64,000 bases of DNA from Pseudomonadota bacterium (GCA_022566015.1 JADFJT010000001.1:29143-93142); one strand, 5' to 3'; numbered from the stretch's first letter, positions 5,144 through 16,918 are shown. Program-made: numbers and translations. The notes: generated by a model not told the origin, from the letters alone.

Positions 5144-5240
5144 GATAAGGATATAATATCGATAATGAAGATATTGAACCAGAGCAACTGCTATTTTACC
5201 TACTATACTATTGCCATCAAATTAAGTTTTATGGTTCGAC

Positions 5241-5712
5241 GTGGCAAGTTCCGGGCACCCGCAAAAAATAGACCGATTTATTATTAACCAGGTTCTTGGA
5301 CGAGGCGCACAAGGTGTAGTCTACCTGGCAACAGATCCTGATCTAAATCGGAAGGTTGCTATTAAGGCATTGCATTTAAGCAATGAACTAAAGCGACAGG
5401 ATAATCAGGAATTTCTCCATCCCCCTCGCCTACCAGGCGGATGTATTTCATATCTCATTCAAAAATAATGTCGATATTCAAATTAAAGATTCGCAGGACG
5501 AGAATATCAGGGGAAAAATTCCACAGTGGTACCATGAGGAAATTGGGGCCAAGGGATTTACCATATTTCCTATCATCATCAAGCACTCTCCAATAGCGAT
5601 GATCTACATAGATGGTGCCGACGGTGCCACCATATCGCTAACCGATAATCAGCTTGGTTTAATCAAAACATTACGTAACCAGGCGATCCTGGCCATCAAA
5701 AACCTGCAATAA
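5241..5712 (+). pseudogene. Remnant of a Ser/Thr protein kinase with GAF domain
   Basis: The 75-aa ORF holds only Hanks subdomains I-II (GRGAQGVVY...VAIKAL) and then stops. A different frame (5404-5712) holds a GAF-domain C-terminal fragment (...GFTIFPIIIKHSPIAMIYIDGADGATISLTDNQLGLIKTLRNQAILAIKNLQ). Confidence 0.5.
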
Positions 5713-5815
5713 ATCACCCGTGTCGCATACTGAATGAAGTAAAAAACCTACTGCTTCTGGATAAGGATGAATATTTTGTTGTAGAATTGTACACCATCAT
5801 TTAAATGACCAATTT

Positions 5816-6091
5816 ATGACCAGAGTAATCGTATATAGCACGGGCACATGCCCAATTTGTGACAAGACGAAAAGCTTACTCGGCAAATGGAATATTGATT
5901 ACGCCGAACGGCGAATCGACACCGACGAGGCAATACGTGAAGAATTTAACCAGGCCACTCAAGGTGCCCGGATGGTACCCCAGATACTCATCGATGGTAA
6001 GCTAATTGGTGGATTCTCGGAGTTAACCGAATTACATATGGACGGCGATCTAGATCATCTGATGGCGGAATTCCAGGGAACTTCTGATTAA
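5816..6091 (+). CDS. grxC: Glutaredoxin (CPIC active site)
   Basis: 91 aa: VVYSTGTCPICDKTKSLL...GGFSEL, matching the Grx3-like fold and motifs. Confidence 0.8.
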   Translation: MTRVIVYSTGTCPICDKTKSLLGKWNIDYAERRIDTDEAIREEFNQATQGARMVPQILIDGKLIGGFSELTELHMDGDLDHLMAEFQGTSD

Positions 6092-6095
6092 CAGT

Positions 6096-6431
6096 ATGGC
6101 TAAAAAGAAATCCACATTTCGCATTCAGTTCCATAATAATAATCGAATATATGAACTCTATGCTCACGAAGTCAGCCAGTCAGAAATGGCGGGGTTTATC
6201 GAGGTGGGAGGGATAATATTTGGCGAACATTCCAAACTATTGATCGACCCAGCCGAAGAAAAGCTCAAGAATGAGTTTGGCGATGTAAAGCATACCTATA
6301 TTCCGCATCATTCGATTATCCGAATCGATGAAGTTGATCGAAGCGGCAAGAACCGTATTCTCGAAACCGACGGATCGACTGTAACCAGTTTCCCTGGGCC
6401 CGCTATCATTCCTCAAAAAAAAGATCGCTGA
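6096..6431 (+). CDS. Small conserved hypothetical protein (DUF1820-like)
   Basis: 111-aa ORF starting 4 nt after grx; lysine-rich N-terminus; no catalytic motifs recognised. Confidence 0.4.
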   Translation: MAKKKSTFRIQFHNNNRIYELYAHEVSQSEMAGFIEVGGIIFGEHSKLLIDPAEEKLKNEFGDVKHTYIPHHSIIRIDEVDRSGKNRILETDGSTVTSFPGPAIIPQKKDR

Positions 6432-6441
6432 CCAAAAATCG

Positions 6442-7296
6442 ATGAAAATTTCGGTTATCATCCCTAGCTATAACCGAATACACACGCTCATCCGGGCGAT
6501 TGATTCGGTATTAGGCCAGGACAGTCCGGTTGACGAAATTATTGTTGTCGACGATGGTTCGAATGACGGTACTGCGGGGCAGATTTCTCAACTCTACCCA
6601 ACCCTCAGGTTGATTCAGCAGCCCAATCGAGGCGTCAGCGCCGCGAGGAATGCCGGAATTAATCAAGCTTGTCATGCGTGGATAGCATTACTCGATTCGG
6701 ACGATAGCTGGATGCCTGGTAAAATAGCCCAAATTCGTCAGGCCCAGAATCGGCATCCTGAAATCCGCCTGTTTCATTCCGACGAAATCTGGATCAGAAA
6801 TGGTGTAAGAGTCAACGCGATGAAAAAACACCTCAAGACCGGTGGCTGGATATTCGAGCGCTGCCTTCCCCGGTGTGTCATCTCTCCATCGTCTGTAGTT
6901 TTACATCGATCACTGTTACAGTCGGTCGGTCTGTTCGATGAGTCACTGCCTGCCTGTGAGGATTACGACCTGTGGTTAAGAGTCTGCCATCAGTACCCGG
7001 TACACTATATTGACCGCCCGCTTATTACCAAATATGGTGGCCACAAGGACCAGCTTTCAAAACAATATTGGGGAATCGATCGATTTCGTATCCATTCGAT
7101 ACACCGCCTGCTACAACAGGGTGAACTAAGCGAATCTGACTACGCCGTTGCGATGTCCACGTTGATCGGCAAACTCGAAATACTGTTAAAAGGCGCTAAG
7201 AAACACCGCAATGAGAAAATCATTGCCGAATTCATGCCCATGCTGGAAACCAGCCTACAGTCGACCCGCAAGCAAACGGTTCCTGTTCTGTGTTAG
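6442..7296 (+). CDS. Family 2 glycosyltransferase
   Basis: VIIPSYNR...VVDDGSNDGT...LDSDD motifs typical of the GT-A fold GT2. Confidence 0.85.
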   Translation: MKISVIIPSYNRIHTLIRAIDSVLGQDSPVDEIIVVDDGSNDGTAGQISQLYPTLRLIQQPNRGVSAARNAGINQACHAWIALLDSDDSWMPGKIAQIRQAQNRHPEIRLFHSDEIWIRNGVRVNAMKKHLKTGGWIFERCLPRCVISPSSVVLHRSLLQSVGLFDESLPACEDYDLWLRVCHQYPVHYIDRPLITKYGGHKDQLSKQYWGIDRFRIHSIHRLLQQGELSESDYAVAMSTLIGKLEILLKGAKKHRNEKIIAEFMPMLETSLQSTRKQTVPVLC

Positions 7297-8099
7297 TTTG
7301 GGTAGCGGCCATGCATTGCGAGGCAAAACCGGTAATCGATTATTACCGACTGAAAAAATCTCAGGTCGAACATGGTTTTGACCTGTACCATAGCGATCAC
7401 ATGTTATGCATTATCAGCGGCATCGGAAAAACCGCTGTCGCAGCCGCGTGCGCCTGGGTAGCGGCGCTCTATCGAGAGCAAACTTCACTCGCCTGGTTTA
7501 ACATCGGAATAGCGGGTGCGGCGGACGCTCCTATCGGTACTGCTTTCTGGGTAAACAAGATTACCGACTATGAGTCGAAGCGTAGTTATTATCCTGTTCC
7601 TTTAATCGAAACATCTTTGAAGCCAGTCCACTGCATGACACTCAATCAGGCCAGTAGTGAGTATCTACCGCAGCTTCTGTTCGACATGGAAGCAAGTGCC
7701 TTTTTTGTGACTGCAACCCGATTCAGCAGTGCCGAACTAGTACAGTGCGTCAAGATCGTAAGCGACAATCTTACGCAGCAAACTGGCCTTGATAAATCCC
7801 GCATCAGCCAGCTAATCGCTCAAAATATTGAGTCTTTGGCCGAAATATCCGAATCGCTGCAAGCACTCGACAAACTGGTCTCAGCCAATAAAATCGACGA
7901 TTCAGACTGGCAAAAATTCGTCCAACGGGCTCATTTCAGCCAAACTCAAAAGAGCCAGCTCAGGAAATCAATACAGTTTTTAATGAGTCAGGACTACGAC
8001 ACCGAAAAATTAACCAGAGAAATTTCCGGGTGTTTGTCCAGTAAAGCGATCATTGCTCACCTAAAGCAATTATGCCTGCAGGCCAGCCAGAACCTTTGA
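7290..8099 (+). CDS. Purine-nucleoside-phosphorylase / MTA-SAH-nucleosidase-family domain protein with a ~110-aa C-terminal extension
   Basis: ISGIGKTAVAAACAWVAAL, NIGIAGAA, DMEASAF and VKIVSDN align with the Pfs/MTAN motifs SGIGKVAAA, NTGSAGG, EMEATA and RAISD. The C-terminal ~110 aa has no recognisable domain. It overlaps the GT2 stop. Confidence 0.6.
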   Translation: MLVWVAAMHCEAKPVIDYYRLKKSQVEHGFDLYHSDHMLCIISGIGKTAVAAACAWVAALYREQTSLAWFNIGIAGAADAPIGTAFWVNKITDYESKRSYYPVPLIETSLKPVHCMTLNQASSEYLPQLLFDMEASAFFVTATRFSSAELVQCVKIVSDNLTQQTGLDKSRISQLIAQNIESLAEISESLQALDKLVSANKIDDSDWQKFVQRAHFSQTQKSQLRKSIQFLMSQDYDTEKLTREISGCLSSKAIIAHLKQLCLQASQNL

Positions 8100-8101
8100 G
8101 C

Positions 8102-9100
8102 ATGGTCAGCTGCGTTTATATCGAAACCGGCGTCTGCCATCACCAGCGCACACGCGATATCAGCAAGCGCATGAAAAACACCCCCGTTGTCGAGATTGGC
8201 CATTATGGAGAGGTTTTCAATCCGCGCGCGCAGAATTTTCGCCTGCAAAAACTCAACTCGGCGCTAATCATTGCGGGCAAACAGAATCGTCGAGTGCTGC
8301 CGGTGCCCGTAGGTTACGGGCTCGGTGGACGACACAATTATTACTTTTCACACATGCTCAACTGTATGTACGATTGCCGATATTGTTTTTTGCAGGGAAT
8401 GTATTCATCCGCACACCAGGTAATCTTCGTCAACTACGAAGATTTTGCGGCTGACATTTCAAATATCGCCGCGCATCACGGTACCGATCCAGTGTGGTTT
8501 TTTTCTGGCTACGACTGCGATAGTCTAGCCTACGAACCCGTCACCCATTTTGCTCAATTTTTTGTTCCAATTTTTGCTCAAATTGACAACGCCTGGTTAG
8601 AACTGCGCACCAAGAGTACGCAGGTTCGGCAATTACTGCGGTTGAAACCCTGCGAACGCGTAATCACCGCGTTTAGCTTTACAGACCAACATAGCCACAA
8701 TAAACTGGAAAAAGGTGTGCCCTCTATCGGCAAACGAATTACTGCGATGCAATCCCTGATCGATTCAGGCTGGCCAGTTGGATTAAGATTTGACCCGATT
8801 ATTTATCACGATAACTATCGCCAGGAATTTGCCCACTTACTCGAAACGATATTCGCCACAATCGACGCCGAAAAACTGCATTCGGTGAGTCTCGGTGCAT
8901 TTCGATTGCCGAAGAGTCACTTTAAGCAAATCAGCAAGCTTTATCCCGACGAGCCCCTGTTTTCACAAAACCTGGTATTAAGCAAGGGTATCGTCAGCTA
9001 TCCACTCGACCAGGAACAGGAATTAATCGATTACTGCCATCAGCAATTATTGCAATTTATTTCACCCGAAATTTATCATCCTTGCATTAGTACCTTTTAA
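8102..9100 (+). CDS. Radical SAM enzyme of the SPL (spore-photoproduct-lyase-like, COG1533) family
   Basis: CxxxCxxC motif CMYDCRYC about 75 aa from the N-terminus and a ~330-aa length. The ORF opens at 8072 but the ATG at 8102 directly follows the upstream stop. Confidence 0.6.
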   Translation: MVSCVYIETGVCHHQRTRDISKRMKNTPVVEIGHYGEVFNPRAQNFRLQKLNSALIIAGKQNRRVLPVPVGYGLGGRHNYYFSHMLNCMYDCRYCFLQGMYSSAHQVIFVNYEDFAADISNIAAHHGTDPVWFFSGYDCDSLAYEPVTHFAQFFVPIFAQIDNAWLELRTKSTQVRQLLRLKPCERVITAFSFTDQHSHNKLEKGVPSIGKRITAMQSLIDSGWPVGLRFDPIIYHDNYRQEFAHLLETIFATIDAEKLHSVSLGAFRLPKSHFKQISKLYPDEPLFSQNLVLSKGIVSYPLDQEQELIDYCHQQLLQFISPEIYHPCISTF

Positions 9101-9156
9101 ATAAAATTATTTCGGATTCAGAGTCGCCGCAGCGAATCAGTGCCAGGCGCTGCTAA

Positions 9157-9303
9157 ATTTGGCCTTTGTGAATAAGTGCCAGGAATGTGCTAGTAACGGT
9201 GTCAATGTCAGCCTGATCGATCCTGGTATGGTGCGCAGCCCGTTTTTCGATATTTTTTCTTTTCGGTCTGGCAGGAATCCTGAAAACGCAATCGACTCAA
9301 CAT
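9157..9303 (+). pseudogene. C-terminal fragment of a short-chain dehydrogenase/reductase (gene remnant)
   Basis: Translation ...NGVNVSLIDPGMVRSPFFD... matches the SDR C-terminal signature (VN.V.PG.V.TP). It has no N-terminus and is under 60 aa. Confidence 0.4.
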
Positions 9304-9334
9304 AATCGGGGATAGCTAATTGAACAGCATCGCC

Positions 9335-12043
9335 TTAATGCGAAACTATCGCCTCAATATTTACCGGCTCACCGATGGAATATCCCTGTATATAGTCAAT
9401 GTTTGCCTCGCGCAACTTTTCAAACAAGGTGTCTGATTCGACATACTCGGCAATTACTTTCATGCCCAGGCTATGTCCGACTTCGGCCATGGATCGGACA
9501 AACACGAAGTTGGTATCATCTTCGTTAATCTCACGTACGATACCACCGTCAATTTTAAGATAGTCAACCGGGTATTGTTTTAAATCAATGAATGAAGACT
9601 GTCCGGTGCCAAAATCGTCGATAGAAAATTTGGCGCCAAGCTGCCTGATTGATTTAATAAAGTCGACTGCCTCCTGCACATTACCCGATACCGCAGTCTC
9701 AGTTATTTCAAAACACAGGGTCGTCTTATCAATTTCGGTTTCCTCGAGACTCTTTTGCAAAAATTTGTGGAATTTCTGCGAGCCCATACTGCGTCCCGAC
9801 AGATTTATCGAAAACATCGATTTGCCAGTTTTCTGCTGATTTTCCTGAAGCCAATCCAGGGTATGCGATACGACCCAGGAATCAATTCTCTCAATCAGGT
9901 TATAGCGCTCGGCCGGTGGCAGAAATTCGTCGGGCGAAATAATGGTGCCATCCGGGCTCCGATAACGTACCAGTACTTCGTAATCGATTTTTTTATCTTT
10001 CGGGTCCATCGACCGGATGGGTTGTACATAAAGGCAAAATCTATCCTCGTTAAACCCTTTCATAATGCTAGCGACCCAATCCATTGATTCCTGTTGGGCA
10101 GTTACTGTTTCATCATTTTCACCAATAAATTGATATTGATTTCCCCCGTTTGATTTCGCCAGGAAACAGGCGGTGGTCACTTTGGAGTAATAATCGGGAT
10201 AATTATCTTTTTCCTGCCCAAAAGACGTCACCCCGATACTGACCGTCACATAGTATTCCTTGTCTTCCCATTCAAAGCTAGAATGTTGAATATCGATAAT
10301 TATCTTCTGCATTACCTGTAATGCGCGATCCATATCTAAATAAGGCATGATGATTCCAAACTCGTCCCCACTTAAGCGGGCCAGTACGTCAGATTTTCGA
10401 ACATGTAATTTAATCACCGCGCTAATCTGATTCAATAACAAATCGCCACCGGCATTACCACAGGTTTCGTTCACTACCTTAAACTCATCGATGTCCAGAA
10501 AGGCCAACACATGTTGCGCGTTTAAACTGTGATCTTCGGCAACGAGCCGGCCGAACTTGTGTTCGAAAGCGACACGGTTAAGAAAACCGGTCAAATTATC
10601 GTGACTGCCTTCGTAACTCAGCTTGCGTCGCAACTGACGATACTCGGACACATCTTTCAAAATCACCACAAACCCAACATCCTCGGCTTCCATATCGATC
10701 ATCGGCGAAGCTGAAAACTCGAGTTCGATAAGTTCTTTGTTGGCATCGTAAAAAAACAGGGAATCCAGCGTTTGCGTTTGCTTCAGCAATTGACCAATAT
10801 CTACAATGCGCGTGGTTTCCCGATTGGAATACATGATCAAAAGTTCGTGAATCGAGGTATTGACCAATAGCTTTTCCTTTTCACCAAACAACTTTTCACC
10901 GCTGGGGTTAACCAGCTTAATTTTATCCTTCGAGTCGATCACGATTACCGGATTAGTAATCGAGTTTAGCGTGGTAGCGATAAAATCTTTTTCAGAACGC
11001 AACCTTTCCTCGACCTGCCGGCGCGAAATAGTTTCCAGTTCGAGCCCTTCAATCATTTCGTTATAGGCCTGAACCACGTCGCGTAATTCGCTGGGTAATT
11101 TTTCCTCACTGATAGTCGCATATTTTCCAGTCAGCAGAGCACCAACAGAGTTTCTCAACCTGTTCATTGGCGCAAAGGCCCGGTACAATAAAAATGCCAC
11201 CGATATAAGCCCGGCGAGGGTCGCGATAGCGGTCAGCACCAGAAAGTTATATTCAGTAGTATCGAGGCGGTTTATAAACGGCTGCTGATCGAATGCGCCA
11301 GTAATACTGGCGCCAAGAAATGAGTCGTCCCCATACAGGCGATATTCAAGGCGTAGATGATTTTTCTGAATTTTTTTAGGCCAGTCCACAGACCGAAACA
11401 GCTCGGATCCATCGCCTGCGGTAATTCGCAATGGCATTTCAATATCCTGTTCGAGCTTTTTTAATCCTTCGGCTGCATACACAATAACATGCAAATAACC
11501 CTTGGGATCGAGCGCTCCAATTGGCACCAGCACCTCGCTATATAAATTACCTTCAAACGAACAAAGCACATATCTGGGTTTCACTTGTATGGGTTCGGAT
11601 AGACTGATACCACCTAGCAATACCGGGCAGCCACTATAAGATTGCAGGCTATCGTCGTTGGCCGCAGCGAATACGTCACCATTAAGGTTTCGAACAACGA
11701 TGGATTTTAACTGGAATTGGCCAGATGCAACAAAATAACGTTCAAAGCTTTTTTCAAGCCAGGACAACATGGCTATTGAGTCCTGATTTTGCAGCGCCGT
11801 GATAAAAGGTGTTTCGTTTTGCAATTTGAAGGCAAACCGTTTCTGGGTTTCGTAAAGATCTTCTATGATATCCTGGCTTTTCACCGCCAGGATGGTCTGC
11901 AATGAATCGCGTTGGTTTTCAATCGCCAGATCGCGATAAATCTGGGTACTATAATACGCCAGTCCAAAAGTCAGCAGGCTGAGCCACAGCAAGGCCAGAA
12001 TAATAATGAGTTTGAAACTGTAGAGACGGGAGAGCATTGGCAC
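9335..12043 (-). CDS. Membrane sensor with periplasmic domain, PAS, GGDEF (SGDEF variant) and EAL (EVL) domains
   Basis: 902 aa with N-terminal TM helices, GGDEF-family motif LSGDEFGIIM, and EAL-domain motifs EVLVR, DDFGTG and QGY. Confidence 0.85.
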   Translation of the reverse strand: MPMLSRLYSFKLIIILALLWLSLLTFGLAYYSTQIYRDLAIENQRDSLQTILAVKSQDIIEDLYETQKRFAFKLQNETPFITALQNQDSIAMLSWLEKSFERYFVASGQFQLKSIVVRNLNGDVFAAANDDSLQSYSGCPVLLGGISLSEPIQVKPRYVLCSFEGNLYSEVLVPIGALDPKGYLHVIVYAAEGLKKLEQDIEMPLRITAGDGSELFRSVDWPKKIQKNHLRLEYRLYGDDSFLGASITGAFDQQPFINRLDTTEYNFLVLTAIATLAGLISVAFLLYRAFAPMNRLRNSVGALLTGKYATISEEKLPSELRDVVQAYNEMIEGLELETISRRQVEERLRSEKDFIATTLNSITNPVIVIDSKDKIKLVNPSGEKLFGEKEKLLVNTSIHELLIMYSNRETTRIVDIGQLLKQTQTLDSLFFYDANKELIELEFSASPMIDMEAEDVGFVVILKDVSEYRQLRRKLSYEGSHDNLTGFLNRVAFEHKFGRLVAEDHSLNAQHVLAFLDIDEFKVVNETCGNAGGDLLLNQISAVIKLHVRKSDVLARLSGDEFGIIMPYLDMDRALQVMQKIIIDIQHSSFEWEDKEYYVTVSIGVTSFGQEKDNYPDYYSKVTTACFLAKSNGGNQYQFIGENDETVTAQQESMDWVASIMKGFNEDRFCLYVQPIRSMDPKDKKIDYEVLVRYRSPDGTIISPDEFLPPAERYNLIERIDSWVVSHTLDWLQENQQKTGKSMFSINLSGRSMGSQKFHKFLQKSLEETEIDKTTLCFEITETAVSGNVQEAVDFIKSIRQLGAKFSIDDFGTGQSSFIDLKQYPVDYLKIDGGIVREINEDDTNFVFVRSMAEVGHSLGMKVIAEYVESDTLFEKLREANIDYIQGYSIGEPVNIEAIVSH

Positions 12044-12501
12044 TATTCGATCACAAAAGGATAGTCCTTATCCTCCCATTCGGTAAAGCCCCCACTAAAC
12101 CAGAATAATCGATTGTAACCACACAAGACTGCGATTTTGGTCGCGATCATACTGTCATGGGAAATTTTACCATTATCGTAAAATACCACTGGTCGATCTT
12201 TGTCACCCACTAATTGCGCCAGTGCGGCGCAATCGGTTTCAGACGCAGGCAGATTGTGCGACATTTCGATATAACCGTGCACACGATCTTCGCTCAGGCG
12301 CGAATCGATCAATGCTATATCCTGCGTCGACCGATATAACTCGACCAGGTTTTCGGCATCGATAGTTATTGCACCATCGACAAAATTGGAAATATCGGTA
12401 TTTAATTTGTTAGCCATGGCAATATTTGCAGGCGTTTCTAGTACTAAATATAAAAATACAGCAGTCGAAAACAACCCCAAGGGTCGACTAATTTTTATCA
12501 T
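12043..12501 (-). CDS. Rhodanese-like domain protein with signal peptide
   Basis: 152 aa; hydrophobic N-terminus; rhodanese-fold sequence with Cys in VLCGYN. Confidence 0.6.
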   Translation of the reverse strand: MIKISRPLGLFSTAVFLYLVLETPANIAMANKLNTDISNFVDGAITIDAENLVELYRSTQDIALIDSRLSEDRVHGYIEMSHNLPASETDCAALAQLVGDKDRPVVFYDNGKISHDSMIATKIAVLCGYNRLFWFSGGFTEWEDKDYPFVIE

Positions 12502-12600
12502 TTCTCTTTAATCTTCGGTTAAAATTATTGTTTATTAGGCAATAATAAAACTCCTATTTTTTTATATTATTCACCTACTTAGACGACTTTTCTAGAAAAG

Positions 12601-13227
12601 CTATGAACAAGATACTCCTGTACCAGCTAATCCACAATAGCCGGAGGGATTTTTTTCCAGATACTGTTGATGATATTCCTCAGCATAGTAAAACTCTCTC
12701 GCGGTTTTGATTTCGGTAGTAATAGTTGAACGACCAGCCTCGTTTAACCGTACTTGATAGATTGCCAGGCTAGATTGTGCCTGTTCGAGTTGTTCGTCGG
12801 TGGTATAGTAGATTCCCGAGCGATATTGCGTACCCCGATCATTTCCCTGCTGCATACCTTGCGTAGGATCATGGGATTCCCAGAAAACCTTTAATAAGGA
12901 TTGAAAGCTAACCAGGGCTGGATCATACAGCACCAGCACGACTTCGTTATGCCCTGTCATTCCGGTACAGACTTCCTGATAAGTAGGGTTTTGCGTATGC
13001 CCGGCGGTATAGCCTACTGCGGTGGTGTATACACCTTCGATTTCCCAAAATTTACGCTCTGCCCCCCAAAAACACCCGAAACCCAATATCACTCGTTCCA
13101 TTTGTGGCGGAAACGGTTCGACCATGCTTCTCCCATGCACCCTGTGTACTGAGTCAAATAGCATTTTTTCGGCTCTGCCAGGCAAAGCCTGATTCGCATC
13201 GGGGATTATCATCGGTTTACCAAACAT
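12601..13227 (-). CDS. msrA: Peptide methionine sulfoxide reductase MsrA
   Basis: GCFWGAE active-site motif; collinear with E. coli MsrA including the ALPGR N-terminus. Confidence 0.9.
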
Positions 13228-13296
13228 TTGAACACCTCATTACTTTACCCATTCGATTTAAAGTATCTCGTTTAACTCGCTCTATCACTTCTCACT

Positions 13297-14112
13297 TCAT
13301 TCAAATTGAATTTCCAACCAGACGGGCGCATGATCCGAAGGCTTTTCCATTCCTCGAATATCATAATCGACACCCGCATCCACCACTGTGGGTCGTAACT
13401 TTTCTGACACCAGTAGATGGTCAATCCGTAAACCCCGCCTGGGTTCGCGATCGTAACCTTTACTCCGATAATCGAACCAGCTAAATACATTATCTTCCTC
13501 GGCATAGCAAAGCCGGTATCCATCGTAGAACCCGAGTCCGGTAAGTGCTTCAAACCATTCCCTTTCCTCAGGTAAAAAACTGGTTTTACCCGTCCTGAGC
13601 CAACGCTTCGCGTTATCCTCACCTATACCAATATCGATATCCTGTGGCGCAATATTATAGTCACCCATAATGACCAGGGAAGTCTGTTTCAGATCGTAGT
13701 GTTTCAAAAAAAGATTCAGATCCTGATAGAACCGAGCCTTCGCTGGAAACTTGACTGGATGGTTACGGCTCTCCCCCTGTGGGAAATAGCCGTTAAATAC
13801 GGTCATGGCTCTACCATCGACTTCAAACTCGCCACCGATGAATCGCTTTTGCGCGGCTTCGGTATCGCCTGGAAATCCATAATAGCTTTTACCACAGGTA
13901 GTTTTTGACAATAAGGCGACACCGTAATGGGTCTTTTGCCCGGCGTATAATGCCTGGTATCCAAGCTTTTCGATATCTGCAAGGGGAAATTCGTGATCCT
14001 GCACCTTGGTTTCCTGCAAACCGATAAATTCAGGCGTATGTTTATCGATTACACAGGCCAGTTGGTGTAGTCGCTGGCGAATACTATTGACATTAAATGA
14101 AACTATCTTCAT
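13297..14112 (-). CDS. xthA: Exodeoxyribonuclease III
   Basis: MKIVSFNVNSI...GLQETK...NGYFPQGESR...SDHAPV, near-collinear with E. coli XthA. The ORF opens at 14139 but the conserved start is 14112. Confidence 0.9.
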   Translation of the reverse strand: MKIVSFNVNSIRQRLHQLACVIDKHTPEFIGLQETKVQDHEFPLADIEKLGYQALYAGQKTHYGVALLSKTTCGKSYYGFPGDTEAAQKRFIGGEFEVDGRAMTVFNGYFPQGESRNHPVKFPAKARFYQDLNLFLKHYDLKQTSLVIMGDYNIAPQDIDIGIGEDNAKRWLRTGKTSFLPEEREWFEALTGLGFYDGYRLCYAEEDNVFSWFDYRSKGYDREPRRGLRIDHLLVSEKLRPTVVDAGVDYDIRGMEKPSDHAPVWLEIQFE

Positions 14113-14294
14113 CCCGCTATTCCCGATTTTCGTTGTCAAGATTGTGGTTATTATAGTGCGACAGATATTCTGGCCAGTGTATGCTCCCCCAGAGATAAAT
14201 CTTACGCGAGTTCAATGTGGATCACTGTCGTTGTACGACCAGGCATAGCGGGTGATCCGCTGCCTGAAAGTTGCCAACTTCGCATTTAGCCCTC

Positions 14295-14840
14295 TCATCC
14301 CTTAAATCCCTGTTTAGAATTCAGATATTCAACTTCGGAATCGGTACTCTTGCGACCCAAAATTTCATTGCGATGTGGAAAGCGGCCGAAGCGTTCCACG
14401 ATGCCATAATGATGTCTGGAAAAGCGCAAGTTTTTTTCCAGACCGGGTTGATCGAATAGCTTGAGCGCCAAAGCCTGATCATCCAGATCTTCGCTGTGCA
14501 TGAATGGCATGTAGAGAAACGATTTTTGACTGGCTGTTAAATCCTGATCGAATCCCTGGTCGATTGCAGCACGGGCTGTTTCGCGCGACCTGGCCTCGGT
14601 CGAAAAGCTTTTGGCGCTACCTCGAAACATATTGAGGGGAAATTGATCGAGAAGGATAACCATAGCGAGGCTGCCTACCGCGATATCACACCAGCTATCT
14701 AGTTCACCCTGTCGCGCCAATTGCCAGGTTTCACCGTAGCGCGCAAGTAGTTGCCGATCAAACTCTGGGGTGGAATTAAACCAGCGTGCACTCACTTCGT
14801 CTGAAAACCAGTATTCAATTAATGCCGCATACATAGTCAC
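14295..14840 (-). CDS. DUF924-family protein
   Basis: 181-aa conserved hypothetical; 4-nt overlap with tmcA. Confidence 0.55.
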   Translation of the reverse strand: MTMYAALIEYWFSDEVSARWFNSTPEFDRQLLARYGETWQLARQGELDSWCDIAVGSLAMVILLDQFPLNMFRGSAKSFSTEARSRETARAAIDQGFDQDLTASQKSFLYMPFMHSEDLDDQALALKLFDQPGLEKNLRFSRHHYGIVERFGRFPHRNEILGRKSTDSEVEYLNSKQGFKG

Positions 14841-16918
14841 CCCCTGCGATGTGATAACTCAGCAATTAATTCGCGCAATTTTTGTTGTATCTGTTTACGA
14901 CCGTCCAGGCTAGCCCTCTCACTCAGTTGGCCCCAGCCCTTGTTCTGCACCGCTTTTTCGATAAGCCATGGGTGTATCGGGGCATCTTCGGGCGTGCACG
15001 CAATTGCCTGCATGACAAAACGCTGCAAGCTGGCAAAACATAGTTCGAACCCTTTGTGCCCTTTAGTAAAGGCTTCTAATTCATCTCGCTCAAATTGGTT
15101 CAACGGGCACTGATATTCACTATAGCGTAATAACGCCGCGACGCTCGTGTTATCCATCACTTGCAGGAACTGGCACAGCCAGACCGGTAAGTGCATTTGA
15201 ATCCTGGACTGCAATTCCTTCACTTGATTGTCGAGCGCAGTATTCAGACTTTTTAAAACCACCACGGACTGATTACCGCTCGACTTACCCTGCCCAAACC
15301 CAATGTGCGTTAGCGCGAACTGACAGTTTCTCCAGAATGCGGATGTTTCCGCCTCAAATGCGAAGCTCGCACCGACATAATCGAACCCCTGATCGATGGC
15401 GTGTTTGATCGCTACTTCGACCATTCGTCGACCGATGCCCTGTCGACGAATAGTTGAGTCAACCGTGATTCGCTGTATTCGCAGACCCCGATGGCTGGCA
15501 AAGCGCCTGGCACCTGCCTGCGCAGTAATCATTTGTGCCAGCAAATGTCCCTTCGGACGCCGCTTACCCAGGAATACTTCTTCGCACAGCGGCGGATCGA
15601 ACCCACCTTCTCGATTCAGTAAAGCCACGCCTGCTATTTTGTCGTCGACCTCGGCGAGAACAATGGTTAAATCCGGGTTTTCCATCAACATTCGCAGATC
15701 CGATGGGCGAGTCCGGTAATGTGCAGACACCATCAAACTATAAATTTCGGTTAGTAACCCAGCCTCCTTACTGCATTCTCTGGCGTTAAGGACTCGATAC
15801 TGACAGGACTTTCCTGGTAAATTATCTAACCGCGTCTTCACAGCAGCGGTTTTGAGTAGCAAGTTAGTGTTAAGCCAGGCCTCCAGGCAATCATTGGCAG
15901 CCCATCGAACCGAAGCTGACAGGTTCAATCGCAGTATCTGTTGCGGGGGCAACCTGGCGATAAATCGTAGTAAGAAACCTTGCCCGGTGCCCTCGTACCC
16001 TCCGGTAGTAGTTGCCATAAGCACTCTGGGATAAAGTTTGCAAAGCTTTTGCAACATGGGGTAAGGCAACATCGCTGCTTCATCGATGACGAGCACATCG
16101 GCTGGTGGCGTACACTCAATTAGCCGATCCGGCGCGATAAATTCTACTTCGCCCGCCTGTGCGAGCAGTATCGAAGCCGATTGCCGGGAATGCGCGGTAA
16201 CCAGTACTGACATATGCCGCCCTACGAGCTGCTCTTTTACGATAAATCCGAGGCAGGTGCTTTTACCGCGACCACGATCTGCGGTAATCAATACTATCGA
16301 TTGATGCTGTTCTTTTAACCACAAAGCAATTCGCTGCTGGATTTCAATTTGCTCAATCGTCTTACCGGAAACCATCGTTATCGACTGCGCGATCGGTAAA
16401 TCCGGGAGTGTCGGCAATTTTTCACCTTGCCTGACGATAACCGCACCAACCGGTTTCTGCGTCAGCTGGTTAAAAAAATACTCCACAAATAAAGGGTCCT
16501 GAGGCACCAGGCCATCCTGCCAGACACCATAACTATCCTCAATTGACGACCACTGGCGTGGTGGTACAGACAGGAGCATGAGCAAACCACCCCATTTCAC
16601 CAGGCCACTGGCTATACAGACCACATCGGGATTCAAACCCTGAAACAAATCGACGATTACCAGCGAGGCTTCCTGCCCCAGCAAGGATTCTGCTTTGATA
16701 AAGGGTACCGAGGCCGGATCTAAGATTCGATCGGATAATACCAGCTTGTCCCGATACTGAGAATTGCCTGCCGATGCCATCTGGTCGCACCAGAGCTGAT
16801 CTCCCTGAACCGACAGAATCAAACGTTGCCGATGGAGTCTCAGATGTCTGGACAGGGCATCGAACCAGTCTGACGTCTCTGCTTCCTGGGCAGATAATAG
16901 AGATACATTTTGAGACAT
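14837..16918 (-). CDS. tmcA: tRNA(Met) cytidine acetyltransferase TmcA
   Basis: 693 aa; helicase-like Walker A GRGKSTCLG plus C-terminal GNAT motif RRQGIGRRMV. Confidence 0.8.
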   Translation of the reverse strand: MSQNVSLLSAQEAETSDWFDALSRHLRLHRQRLILSVQGDQLWCDQMASAGNSQYRDKLVLSDRILDPASVPFIKAESLLGQEASLVIVDLFQGLNPDVVCIASGLVKWGGLLMLLSVPPRQWSSIEDSYGVWQDGLVPQDPLFVEYFFNQLTQKPVGAVIVRQGEKLPTLPDLPIAQSITMVSGKTIEQIEIQQRIALWLKEQHQSIVLITADRGRGKSTCLGFIVKEQLVGRHMSVLVTAHSRQSASILLAQAGEVEFIAPDRLIECTPPADVLVIDEAAMLPYPMLQKLCKLYPRVLMATTTGGYEGTGQGFLLRFIARLPPQQILRLNLSASVRWAANDCLEAWLNTNLLLKTAAVKTRLDNLPGKSCQYRVLNARECSKEAGLLTEIYSLMVSAHYRTRPSDLRMLMENPDLTIVLAEVDDKIAGVALLNREGGFDPPLCEEVFLGKRRPKGHLLAQMITAQAGARRFASHRGLRIQRITVDSTIRRQGIGRRMVEVAIKHAIDQGFDYVGASFAFEAETSAFWRNCQFALTHIGFGQGKSSGNQSVVVLKSLNTALDNQVKELQSRIQMHLPVWLCQFLQVMDNTSVAALLRYSEYQCPLNQFERDELEAFTKGHKGFELCFASLQRFVMQAIACTPEDAPIHPWLIEKAVQNKGWGQLSERASLDGRKQIQQKLRELIAELSHRRG

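Follow-up and report, generated by a model that had tools for sequence, protein, structure and literature searches.

A conserved trio of a nucleosidase-fold protein, an SPL-family radical SAM enzyme and a short-chain dehydrogenase, incomplete in a gene cassette of a Pseudomonadota bacterium

Radical SAM enzymes are, to our knowledge, paired with nucleosidases of the PNP family in only two known cases, MqnE with MqnB or MTAN, and HpnH with HpnG. Another radical SAM partnership is that of AprD4/AprD3, a radical SAM diol dehydratase and an NADPH reductase known from antibiotic gene clusters. In the hopanoid side-chain pathway, a radical SAM enzyme of the HpnH family, a PNP-superfamily nucleosidase, a reduction and a family-2 glycosyltransferase (GT2) follow one another in that order, while in the futalosine menaquinone pathway the adenosylated product of MqnE is cleaved by MqnB, a hydrolase of the PNP_UDP_1 family (HpnH, HpnG, ribosylhopane, BHT, HpnI and MqnE are reviewed in PMC13459092). 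Finally, QueK/QueL of C. difficile combine a nucleosidase with a radical SAM lyase in a salvage route of gut bacteria, and their clusters include ECF transporters (PMC11130926, PMC12632869).

The locus described here lies in a 64-kb stretch of DNA from a Pseudomonadota bacterium (the window), where five plus-strand open reading frames are all present as the initial annotation had described them. These encode a dithiol (CPIC), Grx3-like glutaredoxin of 91 aa (5816-6091), a DUF1820 protein of 111 aa (6096-6431), a soluble family-2 glycosyltransferase of 284 aa (GT2; 6442-7296), a protein of 269 aa with a GTG start and the MTA/SAH-nucleosidase fold, here called PNPl (7290-8099), and an SPL-family radical SAM enzyme (8102-9100). 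The family assignments of all five proteins hold up: HMM searches (Pfam, NCBIfam) bore out four of them and gave a weak, sub-threshold match for PNPl, whose fold was confirmed by a structure model. None of the five matched the PADLOC anti-phage defence models. The junctions, previously given as 4-nt, 10-nt, overlapping and 2-nt, measured 4, 10, -7 and 2 nt, a packing that does resemble an operon. Relatives with no more than 60-75% protein identity show both the 7-nt GT2/PNPl overlap and the 2-nt PNPl/SPL gap, and the conserved overlap points to translational coupling of GT2 to PNPl. While the mechanical ORF of the radical SAM gene begins at 8072, the ATG at 8102 is supported as its start because most of its 5369 homologues (E <= 1e-5) are 332 aa long. 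Pattern matching alone returned a weak sigma-70-like promoter match (9/12) on the plus strand at 5758-5787, upstream of the glutaredoxin gene, one of 13 such sites in the region against 7.9 expected, and no plus-strand terminator-like sites within 5816-9100.

The survey of gene neighbourhoods took in 80 species genomes, some 90 metagenome loci and the best 150 representatives obtained by clustering the radical SAM protein at 50% identity. The five genes had been proposed to form one unit, and this proposal did not survive the survey: the five-gene order was found only in clade A, the window's own clade (18 of 21 genomes). The functional unit is instead a trio of PNPl, the SPL-family radical SAM enzyme and a classical short-chain dehydrogenase (SDR), the three core genes being tied together in different phyla by gene fusions, by adjacency and by rearranged gene order. 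An SDR gene lies directly downstream of SPL in 72 of the 74 assessable genomes among the 80 species genomes. Of the 150 best cluster representatives, 24 combine PNPl and the radical SAM enzyme in one protein chain, with the whole PNPl profile N-terminal; these fused proteins are 480-760 aa long, match the PNPl profile with a best E-value of 1e-36, and retain the nucleosidase Glu, DMEA and VSD as well as CxxxCxxC. These fusions, along with the conserved and permuted adjacency across phyla, bear out the functional link that had been suggested between nucleosidase and radical SAM enzyme.

The arrangement of the trio varies considerably. A Tara contig (L092) has the order PNPl-SPL-SDR, one lineage (L093) has the permuted order SDR-PNPl-SPL, and a PNPl-SPL fusion accompanied by an SDR occurs in a Lachnospiraceae locus (L088) and in two further loci (L086 and L089). 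Another locus (L091) encodes SPL-SDR with PNPl 6 kb upstream, and the P0308 gene call has SPL and SDR fused in frame. Among 84 loci, which fall into 27 groups and come mostly from gut metagenomes, the sole conserved neighbour was the SDR directly downstream (24 of 27 groups). Most Methylococcales loci carry SPL-SDR with neither PNPl nor GT2 within 8 kb, and the nucleosidase step is therefore either dispensable there or performed by a housekeeping enzyme. In addition, a homologue with 36% identity was found in a Gracilibacteria MAG, on a contig of just 1277 nt. No transporter or riboswitch accompanied the module in the loci examined.

The other three genes of the cassette are more restricted in their distribution. 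GT2 matches PF00535 well (E 3e-29, 102.5 bits against a threshold of 23.3), has a GT-A domain with a DxD motif and carries DDGS and DSDD, but it reaches no NCBIfam equivalog cut-off, and its PDB relatives are generic GT2s. It adjoins PNPl in every one of the 21 clade-A genomes and in 7 of 50 others, and it is missing beside every Firmicutes module and from the Gemmatimonadota-like loci. Glycosylation is therefore not a built-in part of the module, and GT2 is a Gammaproteobacteria addition, accessory to it. The glutaredoxin (PF00462, E 3e-17, 62.9 bits; TIGR02181, 74.8 bits, cut-off 90) precedes the cassette in 18 of the 21 clade-A genomes but in none of 47 others, is missing from the closest relatives at 73-75% identity (L001, L006-L008), and is probably a lineage-specific neighbour outside the core module. 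It had been suggested to supply reducing equivalents, a speculative role for which its position beside the other genes is the one indication. The DUF1820 protein (PF08850, E 3e-37) occupies its upstream position in all 21 clade-A genomes and in none of 48 others, and it too is a lineage-specific neighbour. Its best 120 homologues share 76-98% identity, a conservation far above that of the cassette enzymes. It had been called small and basic, but a computed pI of 7.0 means that it is not basic overall; it has no relative in the PDB, and its AF2 model (pLDDT 45.6) was unusable. In clade A, housekeeping genes upstream of the cassette (TerB, OxyR) are syntenic as well.

PNPl scores below the curated cut-offs of its superfamily, with 23.9 bits against PF01048 (PNP_UDP_1; gathering score 25.1), 23.6 bits and E 3e-5 against the futalosine hydrolase model TIGR03664 (cut-off 124.7), and 25.1 bits against PRK05634 (cut-off 129). 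It represents a divergent subfamily rather than a Pfs or MqnB orthologue. Its AF2 model (pLDDT 89.9) has an alpha/beta PNP-type fold, and the best Foldseek matches in the PDB, with E-values near 1e-10, are MTAN, Chlamydia CT263 and futalosine hydrolase, the top 50 comprising MTAN, futalosine hydrolase and one uridine phosphorylase. In MTA/SAH nucleosidases, a Glu activates water, a Met-Glu pair binds the ribose and a Ser-Asp pair protonates N7. PNPl likewise has invariant motifs (HCEAKP, SGIGK, NxGxAG, DMEAS and KIVSD), of which SGIGK, GxAG, M-E and S-D are conserved as in the MTA/SAH nucleosidase group, and its N-terminal Glu stands in the same A-M-x-x-E context. All 33 sequences compared share E10, M132-E133 and S157-D158, and the M-E and S-D motifs align with EMEA and VSD of the MTAN structure 3EEI. 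E10 presumably corresponds to Glu12 of the E. coli enzyme, the hhalign alignment spanning residues 15-81 only. PNPl has kept the catalytic residues found in adenine N-ribosyl hydrolases. Unlike Pfs/MtnN, MqnB and CT263, with which it shares just 14-20% identity, it carries an additional C-terminal helical domain of ~100 residues with an invariant HFSQTQ; in other lineages this domain either connects PNPl to the radical SAM domain or is found on the radical SAM domain itself.

How these enzymes might work together can be approached through the hopanoid precedent. Our preferred reading, tentative and less likely than not, is a small-molecule pathway on 5'-substituted adenosine, analogous to that of HpnH, HpnG and HpnI. 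The radical SAM enzyme would attach a 5'-deoxyadenosyl radical to an acceptor at an sp2 carbon, PNPl would strip the adenine to leave a ribosyl adduct, and the SDR would reduce the open-chain ribose carbonyl to give a polyol tail; in Gammaproteobacteria, GT2 could then glycosylate this tail, much as HpnI does with bacteriohopanetetrol. The substrate would accordingly be a small 5'-substituted adenosine or ribose compound rather than DNA. The scheme uses each enzyme once, is modelled on both known radical SAM/nucleosidase pairings (MqnE and HpnH) and was picked for economy and precedent. Several observations sit uneasily with it. Within the SPL family, the one characterised enzyme is a lyase that abstracts hydrogen, and we know of no case in which adenosylation chemistry has been shown there. 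Moreover, the tightest pair is SPL-SDR, as the Methylococcales loci illustrate, and the window's lineage keeps the other genes without the SDR, which fits poorly with SDR reduction as an obligatory intermediate step.

The likeness to the hopanoid pathway is an analogy of logic and not one of membership. The four enzyme types and their order are alike, but the radical SAM families differ (HpnH against SPL), and the module is without squalene-hopene cyclase context. The HpnH, HpnG and HpnI NCBIfam models are unmatched by the cassette proteins, GT2 giving a 24-bit HpnB match. The module also occurs in Lachnospiraceae, which are not known to make hopanoids. The MqnE/MqnB system resembles the proposed scheme in the cleavage of an adenosylated radical SAM product, but it employs a different radical SAM family, and the module has no mqnA, mqnC or mqnD neighbours.

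It is also conceivable, if on the whole unlikely, that PNPl clears a by-product, as the initial annotation had suggested. On this reading it would hydrolyse the 5'-deoxyadenosine released by the radical SAM enzyme, the SDR would detoxify the resulting 5-deoxyribose aldehyde, and GT2 would act on the primary product. The MTAN-type fold and catalytic motifs of PNPl are in keeping with such a role. 5'-Deoxyadenosine inhibits radical SAM enzymes and MTAN relieves the inhibition, and fusion would place the nucleosidase at the source of the inhibitor, while a housekeeping enzyme in Methylococcales would explain the SPL-SDR pairs that are without PNPl. On the other hand, no other radical SAM family among the contexts examined has a private nucleosidase and a private SDR, and Lachnospiraceae normally have a housekeeping Pfs, which would make a dedicated nucleosidase redundant. 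Clearance would also leave the SDR, the module's most constant partner, with a mere clean-up role, and it is silent on the actual substrate and on GT2.

A third reading, which is rather unlikely, is nucleoside salvage or catabolism, whereby PNPl would act first on a 5'-modified adenosine (MTA, SAH or other), followed by a radical elimination or lyase step of the radical SAM enzyme on the freed sugar or base and carbonyl reduction by the SDR. This follows the logic of either AprD4/AprD3 (radical dehydratase and reductase) or QueK/QueL (nucleosidase and radical lyase). The tight SPL-SDR pair is what would be expected of radical elimination followed by keto reduction, a lyase reaction is the only characterised chemistry of the SPL family, and the module is found by itself, without biosynthetic genes nearby, in Firmicutes, on a Gemmatimonadota-like contig and in Methylococcales, a distribution that fits housekeeping salvage. 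The QueK/QueL route offers a direct precedent (PMC11130926, PMC12632869), but QueK is an IUNH-type hydrolase (IPR023186) with a fold unlike that of PNPl, and QueL is listed under IPR006638. AprD4/AprD3 may be a parallel to the near-universal SPL-SDR pair, with a dehydrogenase or reductase as the immediate partner of a radical SAM enzyme, but that system has a different radical SAM subfamily and no nucleosidase. Also counting against salvage are the absence of any accompanying transporter or riboswitch, QueK/QueL clusters having ECF transporters, and the lack of an obvious catabolic role for GT2.

In the window, the cassette is followed by a sixth, decayed gene that was overlooked in the first reading. 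At about 9180-9302, on the plus strand, lies an SDR pseudogene remnant, of which 39 codons (9180-9296) match residues 161-199 of the 237-aa SDR of L004 with 64% identity by tblastn; its translation reads ...ECASNGVNVSLIDPGMVRSPFFD...ENAIDST*. There is no further SDR orthologue in the 64-kb window, and the window's genome has lost the module's most constant partner, as has a relative with an 82% identical SPL (L175), which has no SDR whatsoever. It would take a doubtful further step to conclude that the whole cassette is decaying and its ancestral function gone, a process that would have begun when the SDR and the LysR-family gene downstream were lost. The LysR-family gene that comes after the SDR in relatives is indeed missing, other gene fragments lie just upstream of the cassette (5241-5712), and a scaffold with 99% identity diverges directly past the SPL stop codon. 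However, GT2, PNPl and SPL are untruncated and keep all family-invariant residues, and the three genes are also intact in L175 after the shared SDR loss, which implies continued selection. Under the preferred pathway, the SDR step in the window's genome would either be supplied in trans or be absent, in which case the route would end with the ribosyl adduct or its glycosylated form.

The radical SAM enzyme, although an SPL-family member, is not an orthologue of SplB. The two share a Pfam family (PF20903, E 4e-19; SplB structures 4FHC and 4K9R) and a CxxxCxxC motif in a CxYCFLQ context, and they can be aligned across ~200 residues; SPL is the sole solved relative of the enzyme (profile, E 5e-17). 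All 21 homologues compared have C88, C92 and C95, which align to the SPL CxxxCxxC motif. In contrast, the enzyme is five-fold under the SplB equivalog cut-off (TIGR04070, 78.9 bits against 400) and reaches 52.7 bits against 437 for TIGR03886. It also differs from SplB in its partners (the nucleosidase and SDR), in its frequent fusion to an MTAN-like domain, and in its hosts, which include non-spore-formers and gut anaerobes. Tyr137 of SGYDCDS occupies the position of the residue that we take to be the hydrogen-donor Cys of SPL (Cys140/141 in chain numbering, the Cys of AACTSD in the PDB chain), and Cys139, close by, is strictly conserved throughout the window's clade but replaced by Thr in fused forms (SYDTD). 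Genuine photoproduct or cross-link lyase activity of the enzyme, with incidental neighbours, is very improbable, and the module is probably not for DNA repair: the Pfam match, the single solved relative, source annotations of homologues as 'spore photoproduct lyase' or 'DNA photolyase', an exonuclease III-family gene 4 kb off on the opposite strand and an alkyltransferase-like DNA-binding gene downstream in one gut locus are set against the low equivalog scores, the Tyr and Thr substitutions, obligate partners that have no role in spore photoproduct repair, a family median pI of 6.7, and a module common in strictly anaerobic gut bacteria not exposed to UV. The setting among a nucleosidase and an SDR, and in gut anaerobes, likewise speaks against activity on 5-thyminyl-5,6-dihydrothymine in DNA.

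The initial annotation could assign the cassette to no named pathway, and that statement holds. Neither the literature nor the curated families searched yielded a description of a PNPl/SPL/SDR module. The module ranges from marine bacteria to human-gut Firmicutes, the trio being common in human-gut metagenomes, and it represents an uncharacterised enzyme trio.

The five open reading frames of the block all lie on the plus strand where the initial annotation had placed them, and Pfam and NCBIfam profile searches upheld the family assigned to each protein. The first (5816-6091) is a glutaredoxin with a CPIC motif that matches PF00462 and scores under the Grx3 equivalog cut-off, the second (6096-6431) is a DUF1820 protein (PF08850), and the third (6442-7296) is a GT2 glycosyltransferase (PF00535) that reaches no specific equivalog. 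The fourth (7290-8099) is a nucleosidase-like protein, PNPl, whose phosphorylase-superfamily match is weak and under threshold, and the fifth (8102-9100) is a radical SAM enzyme of the spore photoproduct lyase family, SPL, that matches PF20903; each falls in a known superfamily. The tight packing reported earlier was also recovered, with junctions of 4, 10, -7, and 2 nt. PNPl starts at a GTG at 7290, generating a 7-nt overlap with the GT2 stop codon, and this overlap and the 2-nt PNPl/SPL gap recur in relatives. The mechanical SPL reading frame opens at 8072; the likely start is the ATG at 8102 chosen initially, since nearly all homologues are 332 aa in length. No terminator-like sites were found on the plus strand within the block, a single weak promoter-like site lies at 5758-5787, and no Rfam family or riboswitch matched in the window or upstream of the module in 22 representative loci.

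Conservation of the neighbourhood was assessed with loci around SPL homologues drawn from assemblies, 80 species-representative genomes, and distant lineages, each neighbouring gene being scored with tblastn and a profile search. The window's own clade, defined by an SPL at least 60% identical to the window's, is made up of uncultured marine Gammaproteobacteria, 21 genomes in all, the Olavius Gamma 3 symbiont among them. The order DUF1820-GT2-PNPl-SPL was present in 21/21 of these, a glutaredoxin in 18/21, and a short-chain dehydrogenase (SDR) gene followed SPL in 19/19 assessable genomes. The upstream housekeeping genes TerB and OxyR are syntenic in most of the clade, and pilT, yggS, proC, and yggT likewise lie upstream where genes were listed, so the adjacency of glutaredoxin and DUF1820 tells little about function. 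In the remaining 59 genomes, which belong mostly to Methylococcales with some Thiotrichales, Granulosicoccaceae, and Acidiferrobacterales, an SDR comes after SPL in 53 of 55, while, counting the locus only, PNPl adjoins SPL in 8 of 52 and GT2 is adjacent in 7 of 50. Neither DUF1820 (0 of 48) nor glutaredoxin (0 of 47) was ever found upstream of the cassette in these genomes, and the conserved unit is not the full set of five. In Methylomonas, ribF, LOG, PilZ, and TrkA, all unrelated genes, surround the SPL-SDR pair. A second arrangement occurs in three loci on short contigs that start just upstream of SPL, leaving the GT2/PNPl region outside (L051, L058, and L084), where the glutaredoxin-DUF1820 pair lies downstream of the SDR and not upstream of GT2; at another locus, L030, glutaredoxin alone occupies that position and DUF1820 was not detected. 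The gammaproteobacterial DUF1820-GT2-PNPl-SPL-SDR arrangement also appears in a contig labelled Urechidicola sp. of the Flavobacteriaceae (L007, JBLILW010000011.1), with an SPL 74% identical to the window's, and a protein labelled Planctomycetota (P0067) is 64% identical; both are probably mis-binned contigs of metagenome-assembled genomes (MAGs) rather than transfers.

The DUF1820 protein, described initially as basic, has an overall pI of 7.0. Its AF2 model is unusable (pLDDT 45.6), and no PDB relatives were found. Its best 120 homologues (P0437-P0556) share 76-98% identity with the window's protein, whereas in the same genomes the neighbouring enzymes are less conserved (PNPl at ~50%, GT2 at ~60%, and SPL at 61-75%). 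Such conservation may point to a housekeeping function under strong constraint and separate from the cassette.

When 1.84 billion cluster representatives were searched exhaustively with HMMER, 1924 SPL relatives were recovered at E <= 1e-3, of which 320 reached E <= 1e-30, and 24 of the best 150 were PNPl-SPL fusions of 480-760 aa. The N-terminal part of these fusions matches the PNPl profile (best E 1e-36), in many cases from end to end with the helical extension included, and the SPL domain makes up the C-terminal part; both the nucleosidase motifs and the cluster cysteines are kept. The fusion is accompanied by an SDR in three loci (L086, L088 from a Lachnospiraceae MAG, and L089) and stands alone in L090. 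A metagenome scan seeded with the fusions produced 80 loci, largely from human-gut samples, which together with these four made 84 loci in 27 sequence groups. The SDR lies directly downstream in 24 of the 27 groups and is the only neighbour family common to more than four of them; PNPl and SPL are encoded as a single ORF in 12 loci and as two neighbouring ORFs in 72. Unfused arrangements include PNPl-SPL-SDR in a Tara contig (L092), SDR-PNPl-SPL (L093), and SPL-SDR with PNPl 6 kb upstream on a 3.97-Mb contig whose cluster includes Gemmatimonadota (L091). Moreover, in P0308, a single ORF carries the SPL domain into an SDR N terminus (TGASSGLG). Fusion, adjacency across phyla, and permuted order therefore identify the trio PNPl/SPL/SDR as the functional unit. 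The SDR itself is of a generic, FabG- or HBDH-like subtype. Two further SPL proteins, P0317 and P0371, possess a helical N-terminal segment of ~100 residues that, judged by eye from the sequences, appears to be the counterpart of the PNPl C-terminal extension, as if the domain had moved between partners. In one gut lineage, the fusion-SDR pair of L089 is followed at 11762-12654 by two genes, one of the PF01035 family (methylated-DNA alkyltransferase-like, DNA-binding) and the other for a YgjP-like metallopeptidase.

A structural model of PNPl built from a 33-sequence alignment is confident (pLDDT 89.9), and its best PDB matches by Foldseek are MTA/SAH nucleosidases, Chlamydia CT263, and futalosine hydrolase (E ~1e-10, 14-20% identity). 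Invariant in the 33 sequences are E10 (HCEAKP), SGIGK, NxGxAG, M132-E133 (DMEAS), and S157-D158 (KIVSD). In MTAN enzymology, the EMEA and VSD motifs supply, respectively, the Glu that binds ribose and the Asp that donates a proton to adenine N7; with HMMER, the DMEAS and KIVSD motifs of PNPl align to the EMEA and VSD of MTAN 3EEI. E10 is the putative counterpart of Glu12 in the E. coli enzyme; hhalign of the PNPl profile to an E. coli MtnN sequence aligned just residues 15-81 at 35% probability, and the active site was compared through the HMMER alignment with 3EEI and the Foldseek matches. A family-specific helical domain of ~100 residues, with an invariant HFSQTQ, forms the linker in fusions. 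With its predicted MTAN fold and conserved motifs, PNPl appears to be an active adenine N-ribosyl hydrolase whose substrate is a 5'-substituted adenosine.

We infer that the substrate of the module is a small 5'-substituted adenosine or ribose compound. To our knowledge, a radical SAM enzyme is paired with a nucleosidase of the PNP family in only two cases, MqnE with MqnB or MTAN and HpnH with HpnG, and such pairing has so far marked 5'-deoxyadenosyl addition chemistry. MqnE and HpnH add the 5'-deoxyadenosyl radical to an alkene, after which the nucleosidase takes off adenine; in hopanoid synthesis, reduction of the ribosyl product then gives a tetrol, which the GT2 HpnI glycosylates (PMC13459092). 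The hopanoid pathway and the cassette share exactly the same four enzyme types (radical SAM enzyme, PNP-family nucleosidase, reductase, and GT2), and on this analogy we tentatively favour, at appreciably less than even confidence, a similar scheme. SPL would adenosylate an acceptor, PNPl would deadenylate the adduct, the SDR would reduce the ribosyl product, and, in Gammaproteobacteria only, the GT2 would glycosylate it. A stronger form, which we regard as speculative and somewhat doubtful, is that SPL, alongside MqnE and HpnH, forms a third radical SAM "adenosylase" class, independent of the other two; with its private nucleosidase and SDR, it would append a ribose-derived C5 polyol tail to an acceptor, and the tail would be glycosylated in Gammaproteobacteria. 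The same predicted nucleosidase could conceivably serve in the clearance of 5'-deoxyadenosine and 5-deoxyribose, a rather unlikely role for the module, and it is unlikely that the nucleosidase acts first, in a salvage route completed by a radical lyase and keto reduction by the SDR.

The window's own copy of the module lacks an intact SDR. A remnant of 39 codons at 9180-9296 on the plus strand translates to ECASNGVNVSLIDPGMVRSPFFD...ENAIDS followed by a stop codon, and aligns at 64% identity with residues 161-199 of the SDR (237 aa) of CP070646.1 (L004). It sits in 9101-9334, between the SPL stop and a convergent PAS-GGDEF-EAL gene (9335-12043, minus strand), and this interval is a deletion scar. 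The Rossmann N terminus of the SDR and the LysR-family gene that follows it in relatives are gone; both genes are intact at the corresponding position in L001 and L004, and no second SDR orthologue was found within the 64-kb window. This shows that the cassette is incomplete in the window's genome. Alignment of the window to a 99%-identical scaffold (L174) ends 3 nt past the SPL stop with complete divergence beyond, suggesting either that the population carries a rearrangement where the SDR was deleted or that the assembly is broken there, and a relative with 82% SPL identity (L175) has no SDR at all, its GGDEF/EAL gene lying 43 nt after SPL. SDR loss is thus common to a subclade that keeps GT2 (seen in L174), PNPl, and SPL intact. 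The loss could mean that the cassette is functionally degraded in the window's genome; the retention of intact genes in L175 argues against this, and we consider it quite unlikely.

Decay is also apparent upstream, where the OxyR-glutaredoxin gap (5144-5815) looks like a variable, decayed region. It contains gene fragments, including a 75-aa ORF (5241-5468) that matches merely the first ~40 residues of protein kinase domains and an 81-codon open frame, ending near 5712, with no Pfam match; relatives have DUF2288 and a short HDOD gene there instead. Downstream, the minus strand of 12043-16918 encodes a rhodanese, MsrA (12601-13227, a name based on similarity and on the PMSR gene that relatives have in this place), an exonuclease III-family protein, DUF924, and a 693-aa TmcA-like tRNA cytidine acetyltransferase, in an order repeated in relatives. 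Together with OxyR and TerB upstream, these genes make up a redox-stress-flavoured neighbourhood, which may reflect synteny and nothing more.

In databases, members of this radical SAM subfamily carry the name "spore photoproduct lyase" or "DNA photolyase," and spore photoproduct lyase is the only relative with a solved structure. Identity as a SplB orthologue was rejected, the scores being 78.9 versus 400 and 52.7 versus 437 bits on two spore photoproduct lyase equivalog models. A Tyr occupies the presumed position of the lyase's H-donor Cys, and the nearby Cys139 is not conserved in fused forms; the family's pI is near-neutral. Its companions are the SDR and a predicted adenine nucleosidase with intact catalytic motifs, to which it is often fused. 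The database label is almost certainly wrong, and true DNA repair, whatever these names imply, is very improbable. The label is widespread; a two-short-motif scan of a species-genome collection gave at least 594 matches to the subfamily, which is also abundant in human-gut metagenomes.

The initial view that the genes could not be assigned to a named pathway holds for the module: PNPl/SPL/SDR matched no curated family, no literature was found on the cluster (including PF20903, IPR049539, and TIGR03886), and the cassette proteins matched no defence system. QueL may be SPL-like; in papers it is described only as "radical SAM" (IPR006638). The module belongs to a known kind of system, in which a radical SAM enzyme is paired with a nucleosidase of the PNP family, and differs in its SPL-family scaffold, its fusions, and its SDR. 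As such, it may be a third case of this rare pairing, it corrects a widespread annotation, and it offers a concrete three-protein system for reconstitution, soluble as far as the window's proteins show. Finally, if the adenosylase reading is true, the module would make a widespread, unrecognised class of metabolites, produced by marine bacteria of the sulfur and methane cycles and by Lachnospiraceae of the human gut.
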